Counted from the stretch's first letter, positions 1,905-42,299 are shown. The stretch is DNA of 45,156 bases from Candidatus Sericytochromatia bacterium (GCA_036676495.1 JAKFCT010000088.1:1-45156), one strand, 5' to 3'. The notes: generated by a model not told the origin, from the letters alone. Numbers and translations are program-made.

Positions 1905-3626
1905 TCAGTAGCGGAGGCCCGCTCCCAGGGTGATGCCGCTGAACGTCTGAGTGAACGTCCCGTCAGCGCTCGCCGCCTGCTCCATCGTGTAACCCAGCGA
2001 AACGTAGCCTTGCATGACGTCCGTGACGAGGCTGGCTCCCCAGCCCCTTCCCGCGAGCGGGAAGATCGCGGGGAAGCCCGGATAGAGGGCGCCCTGAGTT
2101 CCCGGGAAGAGCTTGCCGTGGAGATCCAGGCCGAAGCCCGGAAGGAGCGAGACTTTCAGTTTGCCGGTCAGCGTCGGGCCATAGTAGGTCTGAAGCGGGG
2201 AGAAGGGGAAGGTCGTCCCGGTGCTCTCGCTTTCGACGGTGACCATGCGCCCCATGTAACCGGCCCGCAGCGAGGGCTCCAGGAACGCGAACGGATAGCG
2301 CAGGGTGACGAACGAGCCCAGGGCGGCATCCGTGCGATGCTGGCGGACGCTCTCGACCGTCAGGTCGTAAAACAGGACCCGGGCGTCGAGCCCCGCTCCC
2401 AGGTAGGGCATGAACCAGTGCTCGAGGTCGAAGCCGTTGAGACCCGCGGGGTAGGCAAAAGAGGGAGCGGGGCCGCCGTACTCTTCCAGGGTCTCGATCT
2501 GCTGCCAGCGTAGCTGGAAGGTCGAGCCGTGGCCCTTCGAAGGGAGACGGTCGGGAGGCAGCACCGATTCCGCGGCTGCCGGAGGGTCAGCCGAGGCAGG
2601 CTCGGCACTCTTCGGGGTCTCGCTTTGCGGGCGAGAGGCCGGCGCGGGCCAGGGGCTGAAAGGATCGGGAGGCGCCGTCGGAGCAGGGCTGGCTGGCCTG
2701 ACGTCTGCCGGGATGATCACCACCGGCTGACCGGATACCGGCTGACCGGATACCGGCTGACCGGATACCGGCTGACCGGAAGCAGACGGCGCGGAGGGCC
2801 GAGGACTGGAGGCCGGAGGGCCGGAAACCGGCGGACCGGAGATCGGCTCGCGCGAGGCGGGGGACGGTTTCGGGACCCAGCCCGGAACCGGGGGAGGTGT
2901 CCACTGGGGCTTGGGAGCCGGATCGGAGGCCGTCGTCCCCGGCGCCGGAGTCGATGCCGGAGCCGCAGGGCGCGGAGCGGCGGGGCGGGGCGTTGGGGAG
3001 GCGGCAGGAGCCGGCAAACGCGTGATGCGCTCGGGCTCCGGAAGGGGCGGGACGGGCGCATCCGGCACGATCGGAGCGGGCCGCAAAGGGGCGGAAGCCG
3101 GAAGGCCCGGAAGACTCTCGAGATCGCGCTCCCCCTGCGGAGGCGCCGGGTTGGCCAGGGTGATCATGAGCTTTCCGCCCGGCTGGCTAATCTTGACCAT
3201 GGGCTCGAAGCCCGGCATCAGGTCGACCACCACCCGAACCACCGCTGGAACGAACGAGTTCTGACCGATCCGGATGGAGCGGATCCGGGTGCTCTTGACC
3301 TGGACGATCGGGACGGGCTGTCCCAGCGGGAGCCGAGCCTCGGAGAGGTCGATGACCAGGCGATCCGGATGCTTGATCCGCTGGGTGCGGACGGAGACCG
3401 AGCCGGCGATCCCGATCGTGATCAGCCGCTGGGTCTCGTCGTAGGTCATGCCGGTGACGCCGACCGGAGCGGCGAGAGCCGGTGCGGGGAACCCGCCCAC
3501 GAGCAGCAAGGCCGCTGCGGCCAGGCGGACGGCCAGGACGGTCAGGCCAGCGGCCGGCGCCGCGTCGCCTGGGACGACGCCGGTGCGCCTGCTGGAACGA
3601 CCCAAGGACCTGGGAAACGGGCTCAT
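1905..3626 (-). CDS. Exported protein: AMIN domain + Pro-rich linker + predicted outer-membrane beta-barrel
   Basis: Signal peptide ending PALA; AMIN motifs PDRLVIDL and IRSIRIGQ...VVRVVVDL; long P/A/S linker; amphipathic strands ending ITLGAGLRY. Confidence 0.75.
   Translation of the reverse strand: MSPFPRSLGRSSRRTGVVPGDAAPAAGLTVLAVRLAAAALLLVGGFPAPALAAPVGVTGMTYDETQRLITIGIAGSVSVRTQRIKHPDRLVIDLSEARLPLGQPVPIVQVKSTRIRSIRIGQNSFVPAVVRVVVDLMPGFEPMVKISQPGGKLMITLANPAPPQGERDLESLPGLPASAPLRPAPIVPDAPVPPLPEPERITRLPAPAASPTPRPAAPRPAAPASTPAPGTTASDPAPKPQWTPPPVPGWVPKPSPASREPISGPPVSGPPASSPRPSAPSASGQPVSGQPVSGQPVSGQPVVIIPADVRPASPAPTAPPDPFSPWPAPASRPQSETPKSAEPASADPPAAAESVLPPDRLPSKGHGSTFQLRWQQIETLEEYGGPAPSFAYPAGLNGFDLEHWFMPYLGAGLDARVLFYDLTVESVRQHRTDAALGSFVTLRYPFAFLEPSLRAGYMGRMVTVESESTGTTFPFSPLQTYYGPTLTGKLKVSLLPGFGLDLHGKLFPGTQGALYPGFPAIFPLAGRGWGASLVTDVMQGYVSLGYTMEQAASADGTFTQTFSGITLGAGLRY
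2722..2780. repeat. 15-bp tandem repeat, about 4 copies (encodes QPVSG)
   Basis: ACCGGCTGACCGGAT at 2722, 2737, 2752 and 2767 (last copy 14/15). Confidence 0.95.
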
Positions 3627-4618
3627 TACGCCTCCGAGAGCGAGGGTTCCTCACGACGAACGCGGTCGAAGACCAGGCCCGCTGCTCCGATCATACCCGC
3701 CTTCTCCCCGAGTTCCGCCATCCGGACCCGATCGGGATCCCAGGCGCGCTCGCCGTAACGGGCGGCGACTGCTTCGCGGACCATCGGAAGGAAGAGATCG
3801 CCTTGCTCTCCGACGCCTCCACCGAGCAGGATCCGCTCGGGGTCGAGGAAGTTGACGATCGTGACGATGGCCGTGGCCAGGTGCTCGGCCATCTCGCGGA
3901 TGAGCCCGAGGGCGTTCGCGTCGCCTTCGCGCGCCAGCTGGAAGAGCTGGTAGCTGGAGGGAGCGGGGCTCCAGTGGCCGGAGCGCGCGGCGGCCTTGCC
4001 GAGGGCGGTCCCGGAGACGTAGGATTCGAGGCAGCCGTTCTGCCCGCAGTTGCAGGGCAGGCCGTTCGGCACCAGGATGGTGTGGCCGATTTCCGCGCCG
4101 CCGGCCCGCGAACCGTGGACGAGCCGGCCGTCGACGAGGATGCCGCCCCCGAGGCCGGTTCCGATGGTCATCATGACCAGGTCGGAGACTCCCTGGCCGC
4201 CCCCGCACCAGGCCTCACCGAAGGTGGCGGCGTTGCCGTCGTTATCGGCGACCACCACGAGCTCCGGGAAGTGGGAGGAGAAGGCGGCGCGCAGGTTCTC
4301 GGCGATCGCCATCCCCGACCAGCCGGGCAGGTTGGGGGTGCAGTAGAGGACCTTGCCGGTCTGGGCGTCGATGTGTCCGGCCGAGCTCACGCCGATGCCC
4401 ACGAGGGAGTCGCGCTGCTCGGGCTCCAGGGAGGCGATCGCCTCACTGGCAGCCAGTTCGAGGGCCTGCATGATGGCGGGCCCTCCGCCCTCGGCAGGCG
4501 TCGGGAAGCGCCAGGTCCTGAGGACCTTACCCGTCTCGTCGACCAGGCCGGCGAGAACCTTGGTGCCCCCGAGGTCGAGACCCAGGGCGAGGCGGGGCGA
4601 GCTTTTGAAGCTAGGCAT
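3626..4618 (-). CDS. ROK-family sugar kinase (NanK/glucokinase-like)
   Basis: GLDLGGTK, DNDGNAA, GTGLGGG, EIGH...CNCGQNGCLE motifs; adjacent to nanE. Confidence 0.9.
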   Translation of the reverse strand: MPSFKSSPRLALGLDLGGTKVLAGLVDETGKVLRTWRFPTPAEGGGPAIMQALELAASEAIASLEPEQRDSLVGIGVSSAGHIDAQTGKVLYCTPNLPGWSGMAIAENLRAAFSSHFPELVVVADNDGNAATFGEAWCGGGQGVSDLVMMTIGTGLGGGILVDGRLVHGSRAGGAEIGHTILVPNGLPCNCGQNGCLESYVSGTALGKAAARSGHWSPAPSSYQLFQLAREGDANALGLIREMAEHLATAIVTIVNFLDPERILLGGGVGEQGDLFLPMVREAVAARYGERAWDPDRVRMAELGEKAGMIGAAGLVFDRVRREEPSLSEA

Positions 4619-31030: not shown

Positions 31031-31054
31031 CCCCCGATTCAACGGAGAAGCCGC

Positions 31055-31957
31055 ATGCTCGCACTCGCACTGATCGCCCAGCTGGCCGCAGGAACCGTCA
31101 CGCTCGCTGCAGGCCCCATGCCCGCCCAAGAAGTGAGCGCCGTAGCGGTCTCCCCTTCGGATGAGGCCCGCCTCACCGAGACCCGCCTGGCGGAAGCCCT
31201 CCGAGGCCTCCGTCCCGAGACCCCGCTGCCGGCCCTGATGGTGGCGGTGGCCGAGCGCTTCATCGGCCTGCCTTACCTGGAAAACAGCCTGAACGTCGGA
31301 GAGCCCCGCGCGGGGACGCCCGAGCCCCTGGTTTCGCGGCTGGACGGCTTCGACTGCGTGACGCTGGTGGAAGCGAGCCTGGCGATCGCCCGCTCCCTCA
31401 CCCTGGGCGACCCCAGCCCCGCGGGCTTCCAGCACGAGCTGGAGGGCCTGCGCTACCGCGATGGCCAGCGATCCGACTTCGCGAGCCGCCTCAACTACTT
31501 CAGCGAGTGGATCGCCGACAACGCCCGGCGGGGCCGCCTGCTCGACCTCACCCCGCAACTCGGCGGCGTGCCCGATCCCCGCCCCCTCACCTTCATGACG
31601 ACGACCCGCAAGGCCTACCCGGCCCTCGCCGACGACGGCATCTTCGCCAAGCAGCAGGCCGTCGAGGAGGCCCTGGCGCAGCAGCCCCGCGCGGTCATCC
31701 CCATGGAGCGGGCCAAGGAAATCCTGCCTCGGCTCCAGCCCGGAGACATCCTCGCGTTCACCACCCAGATCCCGGGCCTGGACGTCGTGCATACCGGCAT
31801 GGTCGCCCGCGGCCCGTCGGGCGCGCTGCACCTCCTGCATGCTCCCGAGCCGGGAGAGCCCGTCACGATCAGCTCCAAGCCCCTGTCCGAATACTTCGGG
31901 GCCTCCAAGCGCCATAAAGGCCTGATGGTGGCCCGCCCCTTGCCCGCCGCACGCTGA
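31055..31957 (+). CDS. DUF1460 NlpC/P60-like MurNAc-L-Ala amidase, exported
   Basis: FIGLPY, GFDCVTLVE, LRYRDG, RLNYFSEW, GLDVVHTG, LLHA motifs. Confidence 0.85.
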   Translation: MLALALIAQLAAGTVTLAAGPMPAQEVSAVAVSPSDEARLTETRLAEALRGLRPETPLPALMVAVAERFIGLPYLENSLNVGEPRAGTPEPLVSRLDGFDCVTLVEASLAIARSLTLGDPSPAGFQHELEGLRYRDGQRSDFASRLNYFSEWIADNARRGRLLDLTPQLGGVPDPRPLTFMTTTRKAYPALADDGIFAKQQAVEEALAQQPRAVIPMERAKEILPRLQPGDILAFTTQIPGLDVVHTGMVARGPSGALHLLHAPEPGEPVTISSKPLSEYFGASKRHKGLMVARPLPAAR

Positions 31958-33888: not shown

Positions 33889-35352
33889 CTACCTCAAGAC
33901 GCGGATCGCCTTGTTCTCGGTGTCGGCCACGTACAGCCGGCCCCGGGAGTCCAAAGCCACGTCGTACGGGCGATTGAAGCGGGCGGCGCTGCCCACGGCG
34001 TCGATGCTTCCGGTGCTCGTCGGCGTCCCCGCCAAGGTGGTGACCATGCCTCCGGCCGAGATCATGCGGATGGTGTGGTTATCCGTGTCGGCCACGTAGA
34101 CGTTGCCCGGGCCATCGACGGTCAGGCCCCAGGGAACGGCGAACGTCGCGGTGCCGGCCGGGCCGTCCTGCCCACCTCTGAAGCCCGTCCCCGCCAGGAC
34201 GCTGACCGCCCCGGCAGGAGTCACCTTCCAGATCTGGTTCCGGCCCGTGCTGAGCACGTAGACATGGCCCGAGGCATCCACCGCCACGCCCCAGGGCCGG
34301 TAAAAGACCGAGGGGTCGCCCATCATGCCGGCCAAGGTGCTGACCTCGCCCTCCGCGGAGATCTTGCGGATGACGTGATTGTACATGTCGGCCACGTAGA
34401 TGTTGCCCTGTCCATCCACCGCCAGGTCGTCAGGGTCATTGAATCGCGCCTCGCTGGCCGCACCATTGGCCGTGCCGCTGACGGTCGCCTTGCCCGCCAA
34501 GGTGCTCACCACGCCCCCCGACGAGATCATTCGCACGGTGTGGTTCCACGAATCGGCCACGTAGAGGTTGTCCTGGGCATCCACCGCCAGGCCGGTGGGG
34601 TGGTAGAAGCGGGCAGTGGCAACGGGGCCATCGACGGCGCCGACAAAGCTCTCGTGGCCCGCCAGGATGCTGAACACTCCGTCGGGCGTCAGCTTGTAGA
34701 TGGCATGGTAGTTTTGCGAGGTCCAGTAGACGTTGCCCTTCGAATCCACCACCACTTTCTTCGCGCGACGATCCGCCGGCACGCCCGGCAGGGTGCCGAC
34801 GGTCCACTGCCCGCTCACGCTGGGCGTGGCGGAGGCCAGGGAGCCGGGCAAGACCTCGAAGCTGCCCGAGGTCTTGCCGTCGAAGGGAACGTCCGCCAAC
34901 CGGATGGGAAGGGTGATCTTGTTCACGAGGTCGGCCTTGCTCAGGGTAACGCCCTGCATGGAGGCGGCCGAGACGCTGATGAGCGAAGCCGTCGCGGCAT
35001 CGGCGTAAGCCTGCGCCTTGAGGCGATAGGTGGCACCCGGCTTCAGGCCATCCAGCGTCAGGACCTTGTCGAGCTGGGAGCGGGGGATGTCACGCACGAG
35101 GGGCTTGCCCTCGGCGTCCAGGGCCGGAGTCTCGACCCCGGCATCGACCTCGAAGACCTTGACGATCACATGATGGATGCTCGAGGCCGTGTAGGCAGGA
35201 ACGACGGCCTGCGTGACGTAGGAGCCGTCCTTGACGACCGCCGAGACCTGGAGGGAAGCCTTCTCCTGCGAGACGACTCCGAAGGGAGTGCATCCCGCCA
35301 GCAACGTGAGGGCCAGGAGGAGGTGCGAGGGCTTGAACGAGCGAGAAGACAT
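33889..35352 (-). CDS. Lipoprotein: uncharacterised beta-rich N-domain + NHL-repeat beta-propeller
   Basis: Lipobox LAGC; about six FxxPxGLAVD..GNxYVAD..NHxIR repeats. Confidence 0.88.
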   Translation of the reverse strand: MSSRSFKPSHLLLALTLLAGCTPFGVVSQEKASLQVSAVVKDGSYVTQAVVPAYTASSIHHVIVKVFEVDAGVETPALDAEGKPLVRDIPRSQLDKVLTLDGLKPGATYRLKAQAYADAATASLISVSAASMQGVTLSKADLVNKITLPIRLADVPFDGKTSGSFEVLPGSLASATPSVSGQWTVGTLPGVPADRRAKKVVVDSKGNVYWTSQNYHAIYKLTPDGVFSILAGHESFVGAVDGPVATARFYHPTGLAVDAQDNLYVADSWNHTVRMISSGGVVSTLAGKATVSGTANGAASEARFNDPDDLAVDGQGNIYVADMYNHVIRKISAEGEVSTLAGMMGDPSVFYRPWGVAVDASGHVYVLSTGRNQIWKVTPAGAVSVLAGTGFRGGQDGPAGTATFAVPWGLTVDGPGNVYVADTDNHTIRMISAGGMVTTLAGTPTSTGSIDAVGSAARFNRPYDVALDSRGRLYVADTENKAIRVLR

Positions 35353-35369
35353 GAGTATCGACCTCTTTC

Positions 35370-36167
35370 CTAGGGAATGATCAGCGAAAGCGTCTTGGAG
35401 ATCGGCGCGTCATCGTCCGCGATCGCCACGTCCACCGAACCCGTTGCCACCTCGTTACCGTTCGACGTGACGCGGGCCTTGAGGCGGTAGGAAGTGTCGG
35501 GCGCCAGGTCCTCGAAATACAGGATGCTGGGCGCCTCGCCCCGGATCGTGGAGATCAAAGGCGTGGTGAGCGGCACCTCGGCCCCGTCTACGAGCTTCAC
35601 GAGCTCCGTGGTCGTGGTGTCGAAGGTTTTCCCTGGCGTCCAGGTGAGGGTCACGATCGCCTTGCCCTTGAAGGGCGTATCCGCGAGCTGGATGGAAAGC
35701 TTCCCCATGGTCGGACGGTCGTCGTTAGCGAGGGTGAGGTCGACGTAGCTCTTGTCAGGCGCCGAAAGCAGGACGTTCCCGGCCCCGTAGGCGGTGCCGA
35801 CGATGCGGTAGGTGGTGTTGGCGCGAAGCTTCTCGAAGGCGATCGGCGAGGCCAGGTCGATCGACGGCGACGCCATGCGATGCGTGAGCAGGACCTCGGG
35901 GTCGATGGAATCGGTGGCCCGGCCGGTAAGCTTGTCGATGGCCTGGAAGACCCCCGGAGAAACCTGAACCCAGGGGCGGATCTCCAGGACCTCGACGTGG
36001 GCGACGGTCTTGGGCGTGACGCGCGCCTGCACCAGACGTCCCGACGTGACGCTGGGAGTGACGATCAAGGTGGCGTTCGATCCGGAAGCTTGGGGAGCCG
36101 GCGGGGTCATGGCATTGCACCCGGCCAGCATGAGGCCGAGTAATGCCACGAGGGGGGCGGAAGACAT
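35370..36167 (-). CDS. Lipoprotein with two copies of the same uncharacterised beta-rich domain
   Basis: Lipobox LAGC; LRANTTYRI and LAPDTSYRL segments match LKPGATYRL in the neighbour; start 36167 or GTG 36176. Confidence 0.75.
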   Translation of the reverse strand: MSSAPLVALLGLMLAGCNAMTPPAPQASGSNATLIVTPSVTSGRLVQARVTPKTVAHVEVLEIRPWVQVSPGVFQAIDKLTGRATDSIDPEVLLTHRMASPSIDLASPIAFEKLRANTTYRIVGTAYGAGNVLLSAPDKSYVDLTLANDDRPTMGKLSIQLADTPFKGKAIVTLTWTPGKTFDTTTTELVKLVDGAEVPLTTPLISTIRGEAPSILYFEDLAPDTSYRLKARVTSNGNEVATGSVDVAIADDDAPISKTLSLIIP

Positions 36168-36520
36168 GGGTTTCACGAAAAGGTCCTCGTTGATGGCTTT
36201 GATGTCGTGTGAGTCGGCAGGTCTCGTCACCCGGCAAGGGGCACGGCGATCCGAGGGAACCCTCGAACGATCGCCCTTATATCATAGCAAGCGGGAGTTC
36301 AGGGATGAAGCGATCCGCGATGAAGAAATGCAACATGCCGATCGCCGGCTAAGCGGCCTGGCCCGCTGAATAAGGCCTCCCTGCCGGAGGAGAGCAGCTT
36401 GGGACGCAGCTTCGAAGAAGCCCAGCGGGCCTTGGTCCGGGGGAGCCCATGCTGAGAAAGCCGCAGGGGCAGAGAAACTACAGGGGGTGGGAGGCTACAG
36501 GGGCTGTGCAGCCCTGGGCA

Positions 36521-37279
36521 TCAGGCCCAGACGGCGACGCCGACGTTCCAGTTCTCGTGGGCCATGTAGCGGCGCAGCTCGTCCCGGGTGATCTCGAGGC
36601 TGCCGGCCTTGGAGAGGGGATCGTTGATCCAGACGCGATCGCCGACCATGTGCGTGACCGTGATGAAGTGGCCGCCGTTGAAGCTGGTGAGCTGGTCTTC
36701 CCGGAAGCGATGGCCATAGGCCGCGGGGTTGCCGGCGAGCACGACGAGCTTGCCCTCGGCGATCGCCCGCTCGACGTTCGCCAGTCCGTAGACCTTCTGG
36801 GCCTGAGCCCCCGAGGCCAGGGCCCCACGCAGGACGTCGTCATCCGAAGAGAGCTGCAGATCGTTTTCGGTGCCCATCATGGCCCGCCGGGTCTTGTCGA
36901 TGAACGCTTCCACGTTGCGAGGATCGCTCACGCCCGGAGGCGTGAGGCCGAAGGCCTTGAGGGCCATGGTCAAGCTGGCGGGGCCGCAGTTCGTGGATCC
37001 CTCGGGCCCCTGGGGGTTCCAGCGGGGATGGTAGAACTGGGTGACGAAGTAAGCATTGGGATCCGAGGGAGGCCGGCGCAGGGGAGGCGCGTTGAAAAGT
37101 CCAGACGTGCGGACGAACTGATCCTGGCCCAGCGGAGAGGTGGGTCTGGGGGGTGTTTGCGGCGCGAGCCAGCTGGGGATCGAGGCCGTGGAGGCCGATC
37201 CGCCCGAGCGAGCGGGAGCCGCGCCCACCATGGCGTTCAGGCGCTGGAGAATGGTTTGGTAAGAGGTGACGGCGCTCAT
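36521..37279 (-). CDS. C39-like papain-fold cysteine peptidase with low-complexity N-terminus
   Basis: NCGPASLTMAL (Cys), GHFITV (His), WINDP (Asp); AAGGAG RBS. Confidence 0.85.
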   Translation of the reverse strand: MSAVTSYQTILQRLNAMVGAAPARSGGSASTASIPSWLAPQTPPRPTSPLGQDQFVRTSGLFNAPPLRRPPSDPNAYFVTQFYHPRWNPQGPEGSTNCGPASLTMALKAFGLTPPGVSDPRNVEAFIDKTRRAMMGTENDLQLSSDDDVLRGALASGAQAQKVYGLANVERAIAEGKLVVLAGNPAAYGHRFREDQLTSFNGGHFITVTHMVGDRVWINDPLSKAGSLEITRDELRRYMAHENWNVGVAVWA

Positions 37280-37286
37280 GCGGGCT

Positions 37287-37359
37287 CCTTCGGGGCCGGA
37301 ATTCCCCCTCGATCGGGCTTGCGCCCTTACCTGGGTTATCCCGCCTTCGGGGCCGGAAT
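37287..37359. repeat. 16-bp direct repeat, two copies
   Basis: CCTTCGGGGCCGGAAT at 37287 and 37344. Confidence 0.85.
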
Positions 37360-37404
37360 CGGTAAAGCGAGCCTAAAGCTTGAACTAAGAAACGGAGAAA
37401 AGGT

Positions 37405-37432
37405 AAACCCCCGGCGGCGCCGCCGGGGGTTT
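37405..37432. terminator. Palindromic terminator
   Basis: AAACCCCCGGCGGCGCCGCCGGGGGTTT with T-rich flanks on both strands. Confidence 0.7.
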
Positions 37433-37584
37433 GGTTTTCATACGATCATCATACGTCTGGAGAACTTCTTGGGCACCAGCCATCCGCACGAGATCATGGC
37501 CAAAATTTTGGAGGTTTTGCCCTTGATCGCAAGGCCGAGCGCTACCACCGGGCTGCTAGCGGTCCTTTCGGGGGGACGCAGGCG

Positions 37585-39045
37585 CTAGAGCGCGCCCTTC
37601 AGGCTGTTGACGGCCCCGATGAAGGTATTCCAGCCGTTCAAGCCGCCGTTCACGGCCCGACGGACGGCCTGCCAGTCGCCGCGGTCGGCCATGGCGGCGA
37701 TGCCGCGACGCTCGAAGTACTCGGCGAGCACTTCCGCCGAGACATGCGGGTCGAGGGCGAGATCGGGGTTGGCGACCAGGTTGACGCCGAGCGCCTTGCC
37801 GTAGGTATCGTAGTTGGCGCGGCCGGTGAGCTGGATGAACCCACGGCCCTTGTAGCGGACGCCGTCGCCGCGCTGGGTGTTGCCCAGGTCGCTGCGGCCT
37901 TCGTAGGCGGCGCCGGAGGCGTACTCGGGGATGGGCTTGAAGGATCCGACTTCCACCTTGATGGTGGCCAGGACGGCGATCACGGCATTGGTCGAAGTGA
38001 TGCCCCGCTTCTTCAGCGCCTGGGCGATTTCGGGCCAGTACTTCCGGACGTTCTCCACCGGAGCGCCGAGAGCGCGGGCGATCTGATCGGCGTTGAGCCC
38101 GAAGTTGAAGTCCACTGACGGAGGCGGCGACGACGGAGCCGAGGTGCTGGGGGCCTTGGCGCCGTTCGGCAGCTTGATCATGGTGCCAGGGATGATCACG
38201 TTGGGGTTCGAGCCGATGGCGTTCTGGTTGAGGTCGTAGATCTCGCGCCAGCGGCCGCCGTCTCCCAGGGTCGCCTGGGCGATCGACGAGAGCGTGTCGC
38301 CACTGCGCACCGTGTAGGTCTCGTAACCGGGGGCGGTCGGCTTGGGAGGCTCGGGCTTCGCGGGCTCCGGCTTGGGCTCCGGCTTGGGCTCGGGCTTGGG
38401 AGCCGGCTGAGCCGCAGGAGGCTGGGAGGTCTGCCAGTCGACATCCAGCGGCCCGTTGGGAGTGGAGCCTTGCGGCTGGGGAGCGACGACCCAGTCCATG
38501 CCCAGCGGGTTCGACTGCGGAGGCTGGGCGGGAGCAGCCGGCTGAGGGTTCGGCGCCGGCTGGGCGGGAACGGTCGGCTGGATGGGAGCGGTCTGGACGG
38601 GGAGCGTCGAGGCGGGAGGGGTGACTCCCCGCGTGCGGGGAAGCTGGCCCGCGAAGACCGCCATCATCGTGGCGTACGCGGTCTGGTCGAAGGCGCCGGT
38701 AGCCGGCAGGCCGTACTCGAACTGGAAGTAGCGGACGGCCTCGATGGTGCCGTAGGCGTAAACGCCGTCAGCCTGGCCCGCGAGGTAACCCAGGGCGGCG
38801 AGGTGCGTCTGGAGGGCGGCGACCTCGGGACCGGTCTGGCCTCCGACGAAGTAGCCCCAGGCAGGCATCGGGAAGCCGTACGTCGCGCGCTGGATCTGGT
38901 CGACGGGCATGACGGGGGCCGAGACGGCCGGGGCGATGGGCAAGGCCGGGACGACCGGAACGGCCGGGGCCGGGGCGCCACCGTTCGACAGCACGTTCAG
39001 GCGCTGCAAGAATCCCTGGAAGGTGTTGGTTTGAGCTGCGTTCAT
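37585..39045 (-). CDS. PG-binding + LysM + GH19 lysozyme/chitinase-like hydrolase
   Basis: PG-binding GPEVAALQ...ADGVY...FQ...GLPATG; LysM YTVRSGDTLSSIA; GH19 YEGRSDLGN..GDG.RYKGRGFIQLTGRANY; GGAGG RBS before ATG 39045. Confidence 0.9.
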   Translation of the reverse strand: MNAAQTNTFQGFLQRLNVLSNGGAPAPAVPVVPALPIAPAVSAPVMPVDQIQRATYGFPMPAWGYFVGGQTGPEVAALQTHLAALGYLAGQADGVYAYGTIEAVRYFQFEYGLPATGAFDQTAYATMMAVFAGQLPRTRGVTPPASTLPVQTAPIQPTVPAQPAPNPQPAAPAQPPQSNPLGMDWVVAPQPQGSTPNGPLDVDWQTSQPPAAQPAPKPEPKPEPKPEPAKPEPPKPTAPGYETYTVRSGDTLSSIAQATLGDGGRWREIYDLNQNAIGSNPNVIIPGTMIKLPNGAKAPSTSAPSSPPPSVDFNFGLNADQIARALGAPVENVRKYWPEIAQALKKRGITSTNAVIAVLATIKVEVGSFKPIPEYASGAAYEGRSDLGNTQRGDGVRYKGRGFIQLTGRANYDTYGKALGVNLVANPDLALDPHVSAEVLAEYFERRGIAAMADRGDWQAVRRAVNGGLNGWNTFIGAVNSLKGAL

Positions 39046-39162
39046 TCCGGCCTCCATATGCCACTACATGTCTGTCGGCCGGCATGAACGAGATCCGATA
39101 AAGAGCCCTTTAAGGTTTTCTCAAGGTTGAACGATCGCAGCGTCTCGACCCGATGGAACGGC

Positions 39163-39925: not shown

Positions 39926-40002
39926 AGCCCCCCTGACATGGAGACGACAACATCCCTCAGCGACTGACGTTGAAAGCACCCATCGAAAGACGAGGAGGGA
40001 GC

Positions 40003-41484
40003 ATGCCCACGCCCATCGACCGCCAGACCCTTAGCGAGTTCACCCGACGGATCGACCGAAACCGCGACACCCTGATCGATCGTACGGAAGCCGAGATCCT
40101 GGGCTCTGTCGGGAACCGCAACGGATCCAACGGTACCCGCGAGACGGCGGACGCCCTCGCGAATGGCGACGCTGCCCTCAGCGGCTTCCGGCTGGGCGCC
40201 TCGGACGCGGATGCACTGGCCGATCGCCTCGCCGGCGGCGACTCCTGGGTCTCCAAGGAAGATCTCAGCCTCACGGATGGCGCGCGCGATCGGATCGACG
40301 GCCTGGCAGGCGGTGCGTACGACGGGAAGATCTCCAAGAAGGAGCTCTCGGCGGGCTTGCAGCAAGGCGGTCTCGCCCTGACCGGTGATGGGATCATGCT
40401 CTCCCGCGAAGCCGAGAGCCGCTTCTCCTCGCGCCCGACTCCTCCTGGCGGTTCGGATCGTCCGACTCCTCCCAGTGGTTCGGATCGCCCCACGCCTCCC
40501 GGCGGTTCGGATCGTCCCACGCCTCCCAGCGGTTCGGATCGCCCCACGCCTCCCGGCGGCTCGGATCGTCCCACTCCTCCCAGTGGCTCCGATCGCCCCA
40601 CTCCTCCGGGCGGTTCGACGGGCCCGGTGCCCCCGCATGTGCCCCGCTACTATTGGCAGCCCCAGATGCCGGTCATCCTTCCCAACGATCCCCGGCCCGT
40701 GCCCAAGATCGCCTTGCCCCCCGAGCCGGCTCCGGCCCACAAGGTCGAGCTCAGCGAGGTCAAGGGCGACGTGATCGATCTCCTGGCGGGCTACGACCGG
40801 CTGCGCACCAAGAAGAAAACCCTCTTCATCACCCACCACCCCGAGATCACGGCCTCCGAGGCCAAGGACAAGCTGGGCAAGGGCGAAACCATCTACCTGG
40901 CCCCCGATGGCGGCGTGAACAAGACCAGCGCCTACAAGCCCATCAAATCCGCCCAGGAGCTCGAGCCGCTGTTTTCCCAGGTGAAGGAGCAGAAGCGCGG
41001 GGACATGCAGGCCGTCGAGAACTCGGCATACCAGGCCCGCGTGCGCGACTGGACCGAGCGCGACATCCGCAACCGGATCTCCAACCTGCCGGCCTTCAAC
41101 TCGATCTACAACACCGATCGCCTCGCGCTCAACAACCTGCTGGTCACCGAAGGCGGCCGCTCCTTCAACCGCAACATGATCACCGCCATGAACGTCTACA
41201 ACCAGGCCGACACGCAGCGCGAGATCGCCCGCCGGTGGCATGAGAACCCCGAGATGAGCACCAAGGACTTCAACCGGATGGCCAATTCGGTGATCTCCAG
41301 CAAGGTCTCCAACCTCTACTGGCAGGCGGACTACATGGGCGATCCCGAGGCCTACCTGGGCCGCGTCCCGGTCCCCGGCCTGCGCTACCCCGACACCCAG
41401 GAGGACGTCGATTACAACGTCCAGGTGATCCGCCGGGTCTCGCAGGAGCTGCCGCACCTGCTGAACTCCGCGGTCAACCCGTAA
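40003..41484 (+). CDS. Hypothetical protein: EF-hand-like N-domain, Pro-rich repeat linker, unknown C-domain
   Basis: GAGGAGG RBS; DRNRDTLIDRTE and YDGKISKKEL loops; strongly biased codon usage. Confidence 0.75.
   Translation: MPTPIDRQTLSEFTRRIDRNRDTLIDRTEAEILGSVGNRNGSNGTRETADALANGDAALSGFRLGASDADALADRLAGGDSWVSKEDLSLTDGARDRIDGLAGGAYDGKISKKELSAGLQQGGLALTGDGIMLSREAESRFSSRPTPPGGSDRPTPPSGSDRPTPPGGSDRPTPPSGSDRPTPPGGSDRPTPPSGSDRPTPPGGSTGPVPPHVPRYYWQPQMPVILPNDPRPVPKIALPPEPAPAHKVELSEVKGDVIDLLAGYDRLRTKKKTLFITHHPEITASEAKDKLGKGETIYLAPDGGVNKTSAYKPIKSAQELEPLFSQVKEQKRGDMQAVENSAYQARVRDWTERDIRNRISNLPAFNSIYNTDRLALNNLLVTEGGRSFNRNMITAMNVYNQADTQREIARRWHENPEMSTKDFNRMANSVISSKVSNLYWQADYMGDPEAYLGRVPVPGLRYPDTQEDVDYNVQVIRRVSQELPHLLNSAVNP
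40432..40620 (+). repeat. 27-bp tandem repeat x7 encoding RPTPP(G/S)GSD
   Basis: Seven 9-aa units with strict G/S alternation. Confidence 0.95.
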
Positions 41485-41546: not shown

Positions 41547-42299
41547 TTAAAGGTGGTTCTCGGGGGGCGCCGGCGGGGTCAGGATGGCCTGAAGCTGCTT
41601 GACGGCGCGCTTGAGGCGGCGGCAAATCTCCATCTGGGAGACTCCCAGGCGCCGGGCCACCTCGGCCTGGGTCATGTCCTGGAAGTAGCGCATCTCGAGC
41701 AGTTCCTGCTGCGGCTTGGACAGGCGCGAGATGGCTTCCTTGAGCAGGAGGCGCTCGTCGATGTCCACCTGTCCGTCGCGCGAGGAGCGCGGGTCCTGGA
41801 GGGTGTCCAGCAGGGTGCGGGAGTCGTCCTCGTCCTTGCGGCCCTCTTGATCCAGCCAGTAGACCGAGATCCGGGAGTCGTACTGACGGACTTCGTCGAT
41901 CAGCTTCTCGGAGATTTCCAGCACCGCGGCCAGCTCGGCGTGCGTGGGATCGCGGCCCAGCTGATGGGAGAGGTTGGCCGTGACCGTGGCGAGGCGATAC
42001 GAGAGCTCCTGGAGGGCCCGGGGGCCGCGCAGGAGGTTCTGGCGATCGCGCAGGTAGTGCCGGATATGACCCGTGATGTAGTGGACGGCGTAGGTCTTGA
42101 ACTCGGTATTATGGCCGATCTCGTAGCGGTCGATGGCTTCCAGGAGGCCGATCGAGCCTACCTGGATCAGATCCTCGACCGGATCGGTGCTCCGCCGGGC
42201 CAGACCGCGCGCGATCTTCTTGACCAGGGGCATGAACTCGAGCACGAGCTGCTCGCGCTCCTTGGGCGTAAGGTTCCACTTTCGGGTGGTGCGTTCCAA
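41547..42299 (-). CDS. SigB/SigF/SigG-family RNA polymerase sigma factor
   Basis: EDLIQVGSIGLLEAIDRY, FKTYA..YITGHIRHYLRD, region 4 MTQAEVARRLGVSQM; TTG start with GGAGG RBS. Confidence 0.92.
   Translation of the reverse strand: MERTTRKWNLTPKEREQLVLEFMPLVKKIARGLARRSTDPVEDLIQVGSIGLLEAIDRYEIGHNTEFKTYAVHYITGHIRHYLRDRQNLLRGPRALQELSYRLATVTANLSHQLGRDPTHAELAAVLEISEKLIDEVRQYDSRISVYWLDQEGRKDEDDSRTLLDTLQDPRSSRDGQVDIDERLLLKEAISRLSKPQQELLEMRYFQDMTQAEVARRLGVSQMEICRRLKRAVKQLQAILTPPAPPENHL

Follow-up and report, generated by a model that had tools for sequence, protein, structure and literature searches.

The export and control of cell wall hydrolases, which are dangerous enzymes, is textbook business of the Sec or Tat pathway. 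Lysins without a signal sequence, among them phage endolysins, pneumococcal LytA and those of clostridial TcdE-type release, are set free by holins or lysis, and the polymorphic-toxin markers MIX, FIX and LXG, which are folded domains of 100 to 200 amino acids, are tied to the type VI or type VII secretion system (T6SS or T7SS). Here we describe two adjacent genes, A and B, lying in a 45,156-nucleotide stretch of DNA from a Candidatus Sericytochromatia bacterium (the whole of this stretch is called the window below), whose products are predicted peptidoglycan hydrolases that carry no Sec signal and begin with a common, bipartite N-terminal leader. Sericytochromatia is a class of non-photosynthetic relatives of the cyanobacteria, and the lineage is represented, to our knowledge, by metagenome-assembled genomes (MAGs) only. 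Outside subscription journals, none of the titles and abstracts listed for Sericytochromatia with flagella or secretion systems deals with protein export in the class.

The closest described signals are those of the early flagellar substrates FlgD, FlgE and FliK, which, like the leader carriers, have no Sec signal and bear an unstructured, bipartite signal at the N terminus. As set out in parts of PMC8983047, this comprises an N-terminal signal and a gate-recognition motif (36-FLTLL-40 in FlgD), which must be separated by no fewer than 19 residues, the optimum being about 24. The leader differs from these signals in that its first motif is strongly conserved in sequence and predicted to form an amphipathic helix, in that its second motif is D-Q-[FIL] and not a clear F-x-x-x-hydrophobic, and in that it stands on seven enzymes of five catalytic kinds, none of them encoded in a flagellar cluster. 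FlgJ is a case in which a wall hydrolase is joined to flagellar assembly (PMC8517470, in part), and in Bacillus subtilis flagella, motility and vegetative autolysins are all under the control of SigD (PMC3865298, in part). The genes described here resemble the SigD autolysin regulon (LytC, LytD, LytF) in that a sigma-28-like -10 element (GCGATAA) precedes genes for an amidase, a GH73 glucosaminidase and a LysM-NlpC/P60 endopeptidase. They depart from it in their -35 box, which is TTTACCGGAT and not TAAA at 15 nucleotides (nt), and LytC, LytD and LytF have Sec signals, unlike the leader carriers. Double-glycine leaders, which are read by peptidase-containing ABC transporters (PCATs), are likewise short, N-terminal and amphipathic and stand on proteins without a Sec signal, but here there is no conserved glycine pair, the genome yielded no PCAT, and the cargo consists of enzymes of 250 to 490 amino acids. 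With the lysins released by holins or lysis the carriers share the combination of signal-less wall hydrolases and co-regulated membrane proteins, but such lysins need no conserved leader on the enzyme, and here the neighbourhood contains neither phage genes nor a recognised holin. MIX, FIX and LXG provide the precedent for one N-terminal module recombined with many C-terminal enzymatic domains, whereas the leader consists of two linear motifs within about 55 disordered residues, and no T6SS marker was found.

An arsenal of signal-less wall enzymes (amidase, glucosaminidase, GH19-like, NlpC/P60, M23 and C39-like), several of them with a conserved bipartite tag, would add to the short list of export signals and would open the biology of the uncultured Sericytochromatia to functional study for the first time, be it in cell separation, flagellar insertion or bacteriolysis. 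At about 55 residues, the leader is small enough to be tested as a peptide, with two motifs that can be mutated, and if its destination were a flagellar-type gate it would be a natural, sequence-defined type III signal of interest for secretion engineering.

A bipartite leader shared by peptidoglycan hydrolases

Gene A (36521..37279, minus strand, as are all features of A and B given here) encodes a protein of 252 amino acids in which the leader precedes a papain-like C39_2 cysteine peptidase, as judged by open reading frame (ORF) listing, Pfam, AlphaFold2 and Foldseek. Motif 1 of the leader (MSAVTSYQTILQRLNAMVG) occupies residues 1 to 19 (37223..37279) and is kept in homologues; it is followed by a Pro/Ala/Ser-rich spacer of residues 20 to 49 (37133..37222), by motif 2, LGQDQFVRT, at residues 50 to 58 (37106..37132), and by the catalytic domain of residues 71 to 252 (36524..37069). 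Gene A belongs to the Peptidase_C39_2 family: the profile matches residues 89 to 221 at 29.7 bits, above the cut-off of 24, and the catalytic Cys and His (C98 and H204) are present and invariant among 32 homologues. Foldseek matches to the catalytic domain include Alr0975-type gamma-glutamyl peptidases, 3erv, C39/PCAT peptidase domains and the pseudomurein endoisopeptidase PeiR, at TM scores of about 0.5. In the AlphaFold2 model, which was built on the homologue alignment and has a mean per-residue confidence (pLDDT) of 85.7, residues 3 to 19 form a helix (62-68), residues 20 to 70 are disordered and without secondary structure in the spacer (44-61), the domain from residue 71 is confident (93-98), and the leader is not packed against the enzyme.

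The ORF of gene B (37585..39057) starts with MEAGMNAAQ, but the ATG at 39045 is the likelier start because GGAGG stands 6 nt upstream of it. The protein from that start (37585..39045) has 486 amino acids and begins MNAAQTNTFQGFLQRLNVLS. Its leader consists of motif 1 at residues 1 to 22 (38980..39045) and motif 2, VMPVDQIQRA, at residues 45 to 54 (38884..38913), both placed by leader alignments. There follow a PG_binding_1 domain at residues 71 to 124 (38674..38835; Pfam E value of 1.9e-13), a linker motif NPLGMDW (38491..38511), a LysM domain at residues 244 to 293 (38167..38316) and a C-terminal GH19-like (lysozyme/chitinase-like) region (37588..38085). The GH19 assignment rests on 33 bits against a cut-off of 25.5, with the match limited to residues 394 to 437 and to profile positions 103 to 147 (45 of 232); the whole region is kept in relatives. 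Orthologues of B at 81 to 83% identity occur in two named Candidatus Sericytochromatia MAGs. A preliminary description of the window had proposed that the two adjacent genes share a leader, and both N termini do fit the pattern given there, with DQFVRT at D53 in A and DQIQRA at D49 in B.

The likeness between A and B is not significant by itself in a pairwise BLASTP comparison (E value of 0.36), and a phmmer search with residues 1 to 62 of A returned only A itself below an E value of 0.07. The search set for the genome comprised 34,235 stop-to-stop ORFs of at least 60 amino acids. With residues 1 to 62 of B as the query, a third N-terminal copy was found on contig C3 (E value of 0.0023), in a match that starts with that protein's first Met. 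A profile built from these three leaders reached two further carriers, on contigs C23 (5e-06) and C8 (7.7e-06), the next match standing at 0.23; a profile of all five added no other carrier in the genome. The exact string LQRLN is too strict a pattern, since its 8 six-frame matches are N-terminal only in A and B. A looser regular expression gave 9 matches, against 1 to 4 in shuffled ORFs; the 7 found at the N termini of wall hydrolases add two variant forms, F on contig C34 and G on contig C82, to the five strong carriers, A to E. Because five strong carriers among 34,235 ORFs were reached stepwise from B alone, the likeness is not due to chance. In Pfam terms, the leader is followed by LysM and NlpC/P60 in C, by PG_binding_1 and a GH73 glucosaminidase in D, by LysM and C39_2 in E, by C39_2 in F, and by two LysM domains and M23 in G, so that one leader is joined to five unrelated catalytic kinds: C39_2 (A, E and F), GH19-like (B), NlpC/P60 (C), GH73 (D) and M23 (G). 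In every carrier the module begins with the first Met, and a Shine-Dalgarno sequence lies 6 to 9 nt upstream.

Leader alignments give motif 1 as M-x(3-5)-[ST]-[YF]-[QN]-[GT]-[ILMF]-L-Q-R-L-x-x-[LMV], with the amphipathic core S-Y-Q-G-[ILM]-L-Q-R-L. After a Pro/Ala-rich spacer of variable length, motif 2 is centred on an invariant Asp and reads D-Q/T-F/I/L, often continued by V-R-T (DQFVRT). The two motifs lie about 30 to 35 residues apart, motif 2 beginning at residues 42 to 53 in A to E; in genus g2 the gap is merely some 12 to 15 residues. Both other genomes of the same genus have the leader (3 and 6 matches), a sister genus has 'SYQSILTRLHQRV...GDSFVRAGG' ahead of LysM-GH73, and genus g4 has 'AAYPTLARRLEA...GLGQDAWV' ahead of LysM-GH19. 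Orthologues with identities as low as about 45% retain both motifs. In the 32 homologues of A, the most distant at 42% identity, most sequences retain motif 1 in the form S-Y-x-x-[ILM]-L-x-x-L-[NHS], 'LG-x-D-x-F-[VI]' is common, and D53 is the sole column outside the catalytic domain that is conserved in at least 90%, while the spacer drifts freely in length and sequence. This contrast between retained motifs and a drifting spacer indicates that selection acts on two linear motifs within disordered sequence. The disordered N terminus, its second motif and its conservation in orthologues, all raised in the preliminary description, are thus borne out.

Outside the genome, the leader profile matched 5 proteins at E values of 0.001 or below among 1.84 billion cluster representatives, all from residue 1; this count understates the family as judged from alignments, because homologues of A carry diverged leaders. 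A search of 5.8 billion proteins (those above 123 amino acids, with a shared-word pre-filter) gave 21 matches at E values of 0.01 or below, and the cargo of all 21 was C39_2, GH19, NlpC/P60, GH73, LysM or PG_binding_1. No Pfam family, Rod_binding included, matched the leader at an E value of 0.001 or below. Judged by these matches, the leader is confined to this lineage and to enzymes of the wall and is no general effector tag. The profile scan of the genome and its relatives suggested in the preliminary description thus did find further N-terminal copies, and on unrelated catalytic domains as expected, but the idea that the leader marks diverse toxins or effectors was not sustained, all 7 genomic carriers, like the 21 database matches, being peptidoglycan hydrolases or binders. 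What stands of that idea is a lineage-specific, N-terminal module on lytic proteins in the place of a Sec signal; what falls is any cargo beyond wall hydrolases.

Several smaller observations concern the leader and its carriers. Of the 5 proteins matched among the cluster representatives, P0005 joins the leader and an E-type linker to an SbcC/SMC-like C terminus (weak Pfam matches); it probably reflects a chimeric contig or gene call and not true non-hydrolase cargo. Weak leader matches in one relative (G015), and some in two others (G003 and G005; L008, L014-L016), have a low-complexity look and were not counted as carriers. Gene E (L003:1420-6623, contig C8) lies directly downstream of genes for an OEP (TolC-like) protein, an HlyD-family protein and two MacB_PCD/FtsX permeases, and faces, on the opposite strand, a LysM-C39_2 gene with neither leader nor signal. 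Gene F (L036:2403-7127, contig C34) has a second leader-like stretch (LSGLFQRLDQLV) and lies between a gene for a 980-amino-acid Omp85/PD40/peptidase-MA protein and lspA, the signal peptidase II gene. The linker motif of B, in the form NPLG[VIM]xW, has 15 matches in 10 ORFs (2 to 8 in shuffles): one copy in B and two each in C, D and E (L001, L002, L003), one at the extreme C terminus of an Amidase_2-LysM protein, and three in a PG_binding-like repeat protein (G000:C57:645-2108).

Export signals in the leader carriers

Sec signals were sought as the most hydrophobic 12-residue stretch (Kyte-Doolittle mean) within the first 70 residues, with three lipoproteins of the genome as controls. The controls scored 2.26 to 2.53 without prolines. 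In A to G the best stretches scored 0.62 to 1.88 and contained 1 to 4 prolines, except that of A (0.97, none); that of B scored 1.72 with 3 prolines. By this rule a Sec or lipoprotein hydrophobic region is absent from all seven, and the in-frame sequence upstream of each Met likewise contains none, so that alternative starts do not supply a Sec-like stretch. Neither A nor B has a lipobox, and none of the 32 homologues of A has a hydrophobic signal. The genome encodes TatC, but no twin arginine is present in A or B or, more generally, within the first 45 residues of A to E, which have a single Arg in LQRL. The absence of a signal peptide and lipobox from A and B, as asserted in the preliminary description, is therefore upheld.

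A paralogue of A on contig C72 (L037) begins MRIHALSALLTLGLLLGC, an ordinary lipoprotein signal, and continues with the same C39_2 domain. It follows that the C39_2 domain works outside the cytoplasm, and that the leader holds the place that a Sec signal has in the sister protein. Another C39-like peptidase domain occurs in a protein of 425 amino acids (L035:4359-5633, contig C96) in which four LGE[VI]LV...L..AL.EQKRT repeats and, after them, one membrane helix precede the domain; from its sequence, this protein appears to couple a cytoplasmic repeat module to an outside peptidase.

A promoter shared by the leader genes

Alignment of the sequences upstream of A to E and their orthologues revealed a common element, TTAAx-N6-[CT]TTTACCGGAT-N14-GCGATAAC. 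Upstream of A it reads TTTAG-N6-TTTACCGATT-N14-GGGATAAC (37335..37380, minus strand; position weight matrix (PWM) score 39.5) and upstream of B TTAAA-N6-TTTATCGGAT-N14-CCGACAGA (39071..39116, minus strand; score 35.6). The -10 variants GCGATAAC, GGGATAAC and CCGACA stand at a fixed 14 to 15 nt after the upstream box, and the form GCGATAA is sigma-28-like. A PWM scan of the genome gave 21 sites with fixed spacing, 13 of them scoring at least 25. These precede A, B, C, D and E, the N terminus of the Amidase_2-LysM protein, a LysM protein with a Gly/Ala-rich tail, a 203-amino-acid Gly-zipper membrane protein, proteins of 207 and 1033 amino acids without a Pfam match, and three lipoproteins, of which one is clostripain-like. 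Besides the Gly-zipper protein, two proteins encoded behind the promoter have hydrophobic tails rich in Gly and Ala. The box is absent upstream of the variant carriers F and G.

The strict pattern was found in 18 of 41 relatives, all in families f1 to f4 of the order and none in f5 to f7, and the reversed control in 0 of 41. Downstream of it in these relatives lie genes for the Gly-zipper protein, the amidase, lipoproteins, LysM proteins and leader hydrolases. The Gly-zipper protein has a weak DUF1269 match and has orthologues behind the same promoter in four relatives (G003, G005, G006 and G008); no holin family was recognised among the Gly-zipper and other co-regulated proteins by Pfam, and a protein atlas gave only unnamed clusters. 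By the evidence of these shared elements, the leader hydrolases form a predicted regulon. The gene for the Amidase_2-LysM protein is split over two contig ends (G000:C9:15818-16054 and C23:52826-54292; L052, L002), and its N terminus (MAIRQFSQAYRPAVQGL...), behind the shared promoter, has no Sec signal.

The sigma-28 (FliA/SigD/WhiG) consensus combines the -10 element GCCGATAA with TAAA 15 nt upstream. The leader promoters agree with it at -10 and depart from it at -35, where they have TTTACCGGAT. Three group-3 sigma factors of the genome are candidates for reading the box, namely a SigB/F/G-like factor in the window (41547..42299, minus strand; Pfam regions 2, 3 and 4; NCBIfam SigBFG at 199 bits against a cut-off of 234) and FliA/WhiG-like factors in flagellar clusters 1 and 2. 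The window factor, which is 98% identical and syntenic in MAG LC031, is a candidate reader of the shared promoter. An assignment by phyletic pattern was dropped, as the cluster-2 factor occurs in 39 of 41 relatives and does not discriminate. A sigma-28-like promoter before wall enzymes recalls the Bacillus SigD autolysins, and hence remodelling of the cell's own wall, as much as it recalls a weapon for antagonism. Between the sigma factor gene and B lies a gene (39970-41484, plus strand) for a 504-amino-acid protein with two EF-hand-like loops, seen by eye, and then six PTPP[GS]GSDR repeats; neither Pfam nor NCBIfam matches this protein, which lacks a signal peptide and is 85% identical and syntenic in MAG LC031.

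Possible routes across the inner membrane

Two sets of flagellar export genes were found in the genome. Contig C38 (L032, L033) carries fliE-F-G-H-I-J, flgD, flgE, fliK, motAB, fliL-M-N, fliP-Q, flhB, flhA, che genes and a FliA-type sigma factor gene, and contig C45 (L034) carries flgF-G-A-H-I, a sigma factor gene, flgC, fliE, a fliF-fliG fusion and flhA; with a second flhB and a second fliP elsewhere, there are two each of FlhA, FlhB and FliP. The genome also has two ORFs for the FlhA C-terminal domain only and one for the FlhB C-terminal domain (FlhB-C) only; the genes of this inventory as a whole lie on contigs C38, C45, C42, C34 and C47. Searches of this genome for TssC (T6SS), for a contractile sheath (extracellular contractile injection system, eCIS) and for VirB4 (type IV secretion system) found none. 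Among the machines that the preliminary description had wished to see inventoried, flagellar export sets are thus present in duplicate, whereas T6SS and eCIS markers did not turn up. Because no marker of the other machines was found, a flagellar-type gate is, by elimination, the sole recognised Sec-independent exit. FHIPEP is found in 40 of 41 genomes of the class, most with two full copies and some families with 7 to 12 matches, and a phyletic link between the leader and FHIPEP was therefore set aside as offering no contrast within the class.

Together with the architecture of the leader, this elimination makes a type III or flagellar route the best candidate. We suggest that the leader, standing in place of a Sec signal on co-regulated peptidoglycan hydrolases, may be a Sec-independent export leader, probably for a flagellar-type type III secretion gate, although we place this predicted function, export as well as route, just short of probable. 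Motif 1, the amphipathic helix, would act as the N-terminal signal, motif 2 would dock as the gate-recognition motif does in early flagellar substrates, and the hydrolases would leave through one of the two flagellar-type gates. Consistent with this suggestion, residues 3 to 5 of the carriers are A-V-T in A, A-A-Q in B, T-A-A in C, S-A-A in D and P-M-I in E, in line with the small non-polar early residues of early substrates, a loose requirement, and the distance to motif 2 in A to E exceeds the roughly 19 to 24 residues or more expected ahead of a docking motif (PMC8983047, in part). FlgD ('QADFLKLL') and FliE ('RPDFGAIF') of this genome themselves show D-F motifs, that of FliE after a Pro-rich N terminus.

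A wider version of this suggestion arises from a census of LysM proteins, which in this genome amount to 33 matches in 24 ORFs. All in-frame sequence upstream of the first LysM was read, so that the choice of start codon was irrelevant, and a stretch was called signal-like by a home-made rule, a 12-residue Kyte-Doolittle mean of at least 1.8 (or at least 2.0) with no more than one proline. At the stricter threshold 4 of the 24 ORFs qualified and at the looser one 7, in 2 of which the stretch lies inside an amidase domain whose N terminus is lost at a contig end. The corresponding figures were 2 and 5 of 11 ORFs in two genomes of other Sericytochromatia families and 3 and 7 of 8 ORFs (one unreadable) in three complete genomes of the phylum without FlhB, and 3 of 10 ORFs qualified at 1.8 in three flagellated genomes from a different class of the phylum; the census is small and its groups are clades, so that the contrast is confounded by phylogeny and is a lead, not a test. 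Several of the signal-less LysM proteins, in this and other families, have Pro/Ala/Gln-rich N termini followed by D-[QST]-[FL], and others begin directly with LysM, for example MNVKIKFGDTLS; in a lineage whose wall-binding proteins commonly lack Sec signals, the leader thus represents one of several solutions. It is conceivable, although we think it unlikely, that in Sericytochromatia, and perhaps in flagellated non-photosynthetic Cyanobacteriota generally, most LysM and peptidoglycan-active proteins cross the inner membrane independently of Sec, by a route that reads a short N-terminal element, a Pro/Ala spacer and D-Q-[FL]. One of the two gates would then be a general wall-enzyme exporter and not a flagellum builder only, and the YQGILQRLN leader would be a sharpened, genus-level version with its own sigma-28-like regulon.

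The small size and phylogenetic confounding of the census weigh against a flagellar-gate route, as do a number of other observations. The census threshold was lowered from 2.0 to 1.8 after four obvious control signal peptides had scored 1.81 to 1.93, and signal-less LysM hydrolases without any leader coexist in the genome. The leader genes sit in ordinary chromosomal contexts outside the flagellar clusters, and none of the 21 PWM sites falls in the annotated stretches of the flagellar contigs; the flagellin gene has a canonical promoter, TAAAG-N15-GTCGAATA, without the TTTACCGGAT box. The nearest approach of the two kinds of gene, in genus g4 (G008 and G005), is a leader-type LysM-GH19 gene near the second flhA with a GH15 gene and a small ORF between them, which is a weak link. 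For motif 2, FVRTY of D fits F-x-x-x-hydrophobic, whereas FVRTS, IQRAT, LALSQ and FTLSP show no clear fit. Type III signals are mostly not conserved in sequence, unlike this leader, a flagellar gate that left LysM enzymes in the cell's own periplasm would be a puzzle, and in a genome that is 92% complete another secretion machine may have been missed. When residues 212-353 of the cluster 1 FlhB (FlhB-C, 41-row alignment) and 70 amino acids of leader (15-row alignment) were modelled as a complex, the ipSAE values were 0.01 and 0.02, with a mark of 0.32; the prediction gave no verdict and counts neither for nor against binding.

Alternatively, the leader may serve export by another route, such as a dedicated, undescribed translocase, the holin-like or Gly-zipper membrane proteins of the same regulon, or regulated, type-10-like lysis. 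The 203-amino-acid Gly-zipper protein and the two proteins with Gly/Ala-rich hydrophobic tails lie behind the same promoter, the leaderless, signal-less LysM hydrolases fit a less specific exit, and there is precedent for signal-less proteins leaving the cell through a holin-like protein or autolysis (PMC6016235, in part). We nevertheless consider such a route rather unlikely, if by no means negligible, given that no holin family was recognised, that the surroundings of the leader genes offer no candidate translocase gene, and that non-specific release would leave selection on two short motifs at a set N-terminal distance unexplained. A different possibility is that the leader does not direct passage across the membrane at all and is a docking or control element through which a partner localises, activates or inhibits the hydrolases, comparable to the N-terminal coiled coils of FtsEX-controlled hydrolases. 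The restriction of its cargo to peptidoglycan enzymes (21 of 21 in the databases, 7 of 7 in the genome) and the position of gene E behind the OEP-HlyD-MacB_PCD/FtsX cluster would suit such a role, but that neighbourhood is found for only 1 of the 7 carriers, the modelled leader is not packed on the enzyme, and the proteins would still be without a way across the membrane and would require a second, unseen signal, so that this explanation too is unlikely.

The two remaining explanations, a PCAT-type leader and a remnant or chance likeness, are very improbable even when taken together. A double-glycine-type leader, cleaved and exported by a PCAT, is brought to mind by the GG, GA, SG or GS that follows motif 1 in A, B, C and E and by the C39-family domains of the genome; it has next to nothing in its favour once it is seen that D-type leaders end in V-S-P or V-A-P without a Gly, so that the Gly pair is not conserved, and that the three PF03412 matches in the 92% complete genome (a leader hydrolase, a lipoprotein and a membrane-anchored protein) include none fused to an ABC transporter. 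The non-significant BLASTP comparison of A and B would accord with a chance likeness, and the linker motifs that B, C and E also share make common descent of whole N-terminal halves likely and so would accord with a functionless remnant of recent duplication. Against both stand the retention of the motifs beside a free spacer in homologues down to 42% identity and the constant position of the module at the first Met, behind a Shine-Dalgarno sequence, on five unrelated catalytic domains, and we give a remnant or chance origin only the slightest probability.

Some neighbouring features of the two main subjects may be added. Between A and an amidase-family gene of the window lie two lipoprotein genes (33889-36230, minus strand; one for an NHL-repeat protein of 487 amino acids, the other for a protein of 286 amino acids without a Pfam match), which are unmatched in two related loci (L025, L026), where the amidase gene directly follows A. 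On another contig, a stretch of 57% G+C (G000:C29:20001-36500; genome 66%) between two flagellin-family genes contains ORFs that look, by eye, like nucleotide-sugar or sialic-acid-type synthesis genes, and may be a flagellin glycosylation island. Other wall-related genes of the window encode an MliC-type lysozyme inhibitor (488-937), an AMIN-domain protein (1908-3650) and an AmiA-like amidase (31031-31954). The remaining genes of the window, among them mnmE, yidC, the hut genes and those for an M13 peptidase, MscS channels and a two-component system, give it an ordinary chromosomal character, and, in agreement with the preliminary description, neither phage genes nor a recognised holin were found in it; the genome to which it belongs (G000) comprises 4.14 Mb in 106 contigs at 65.9% G+C.

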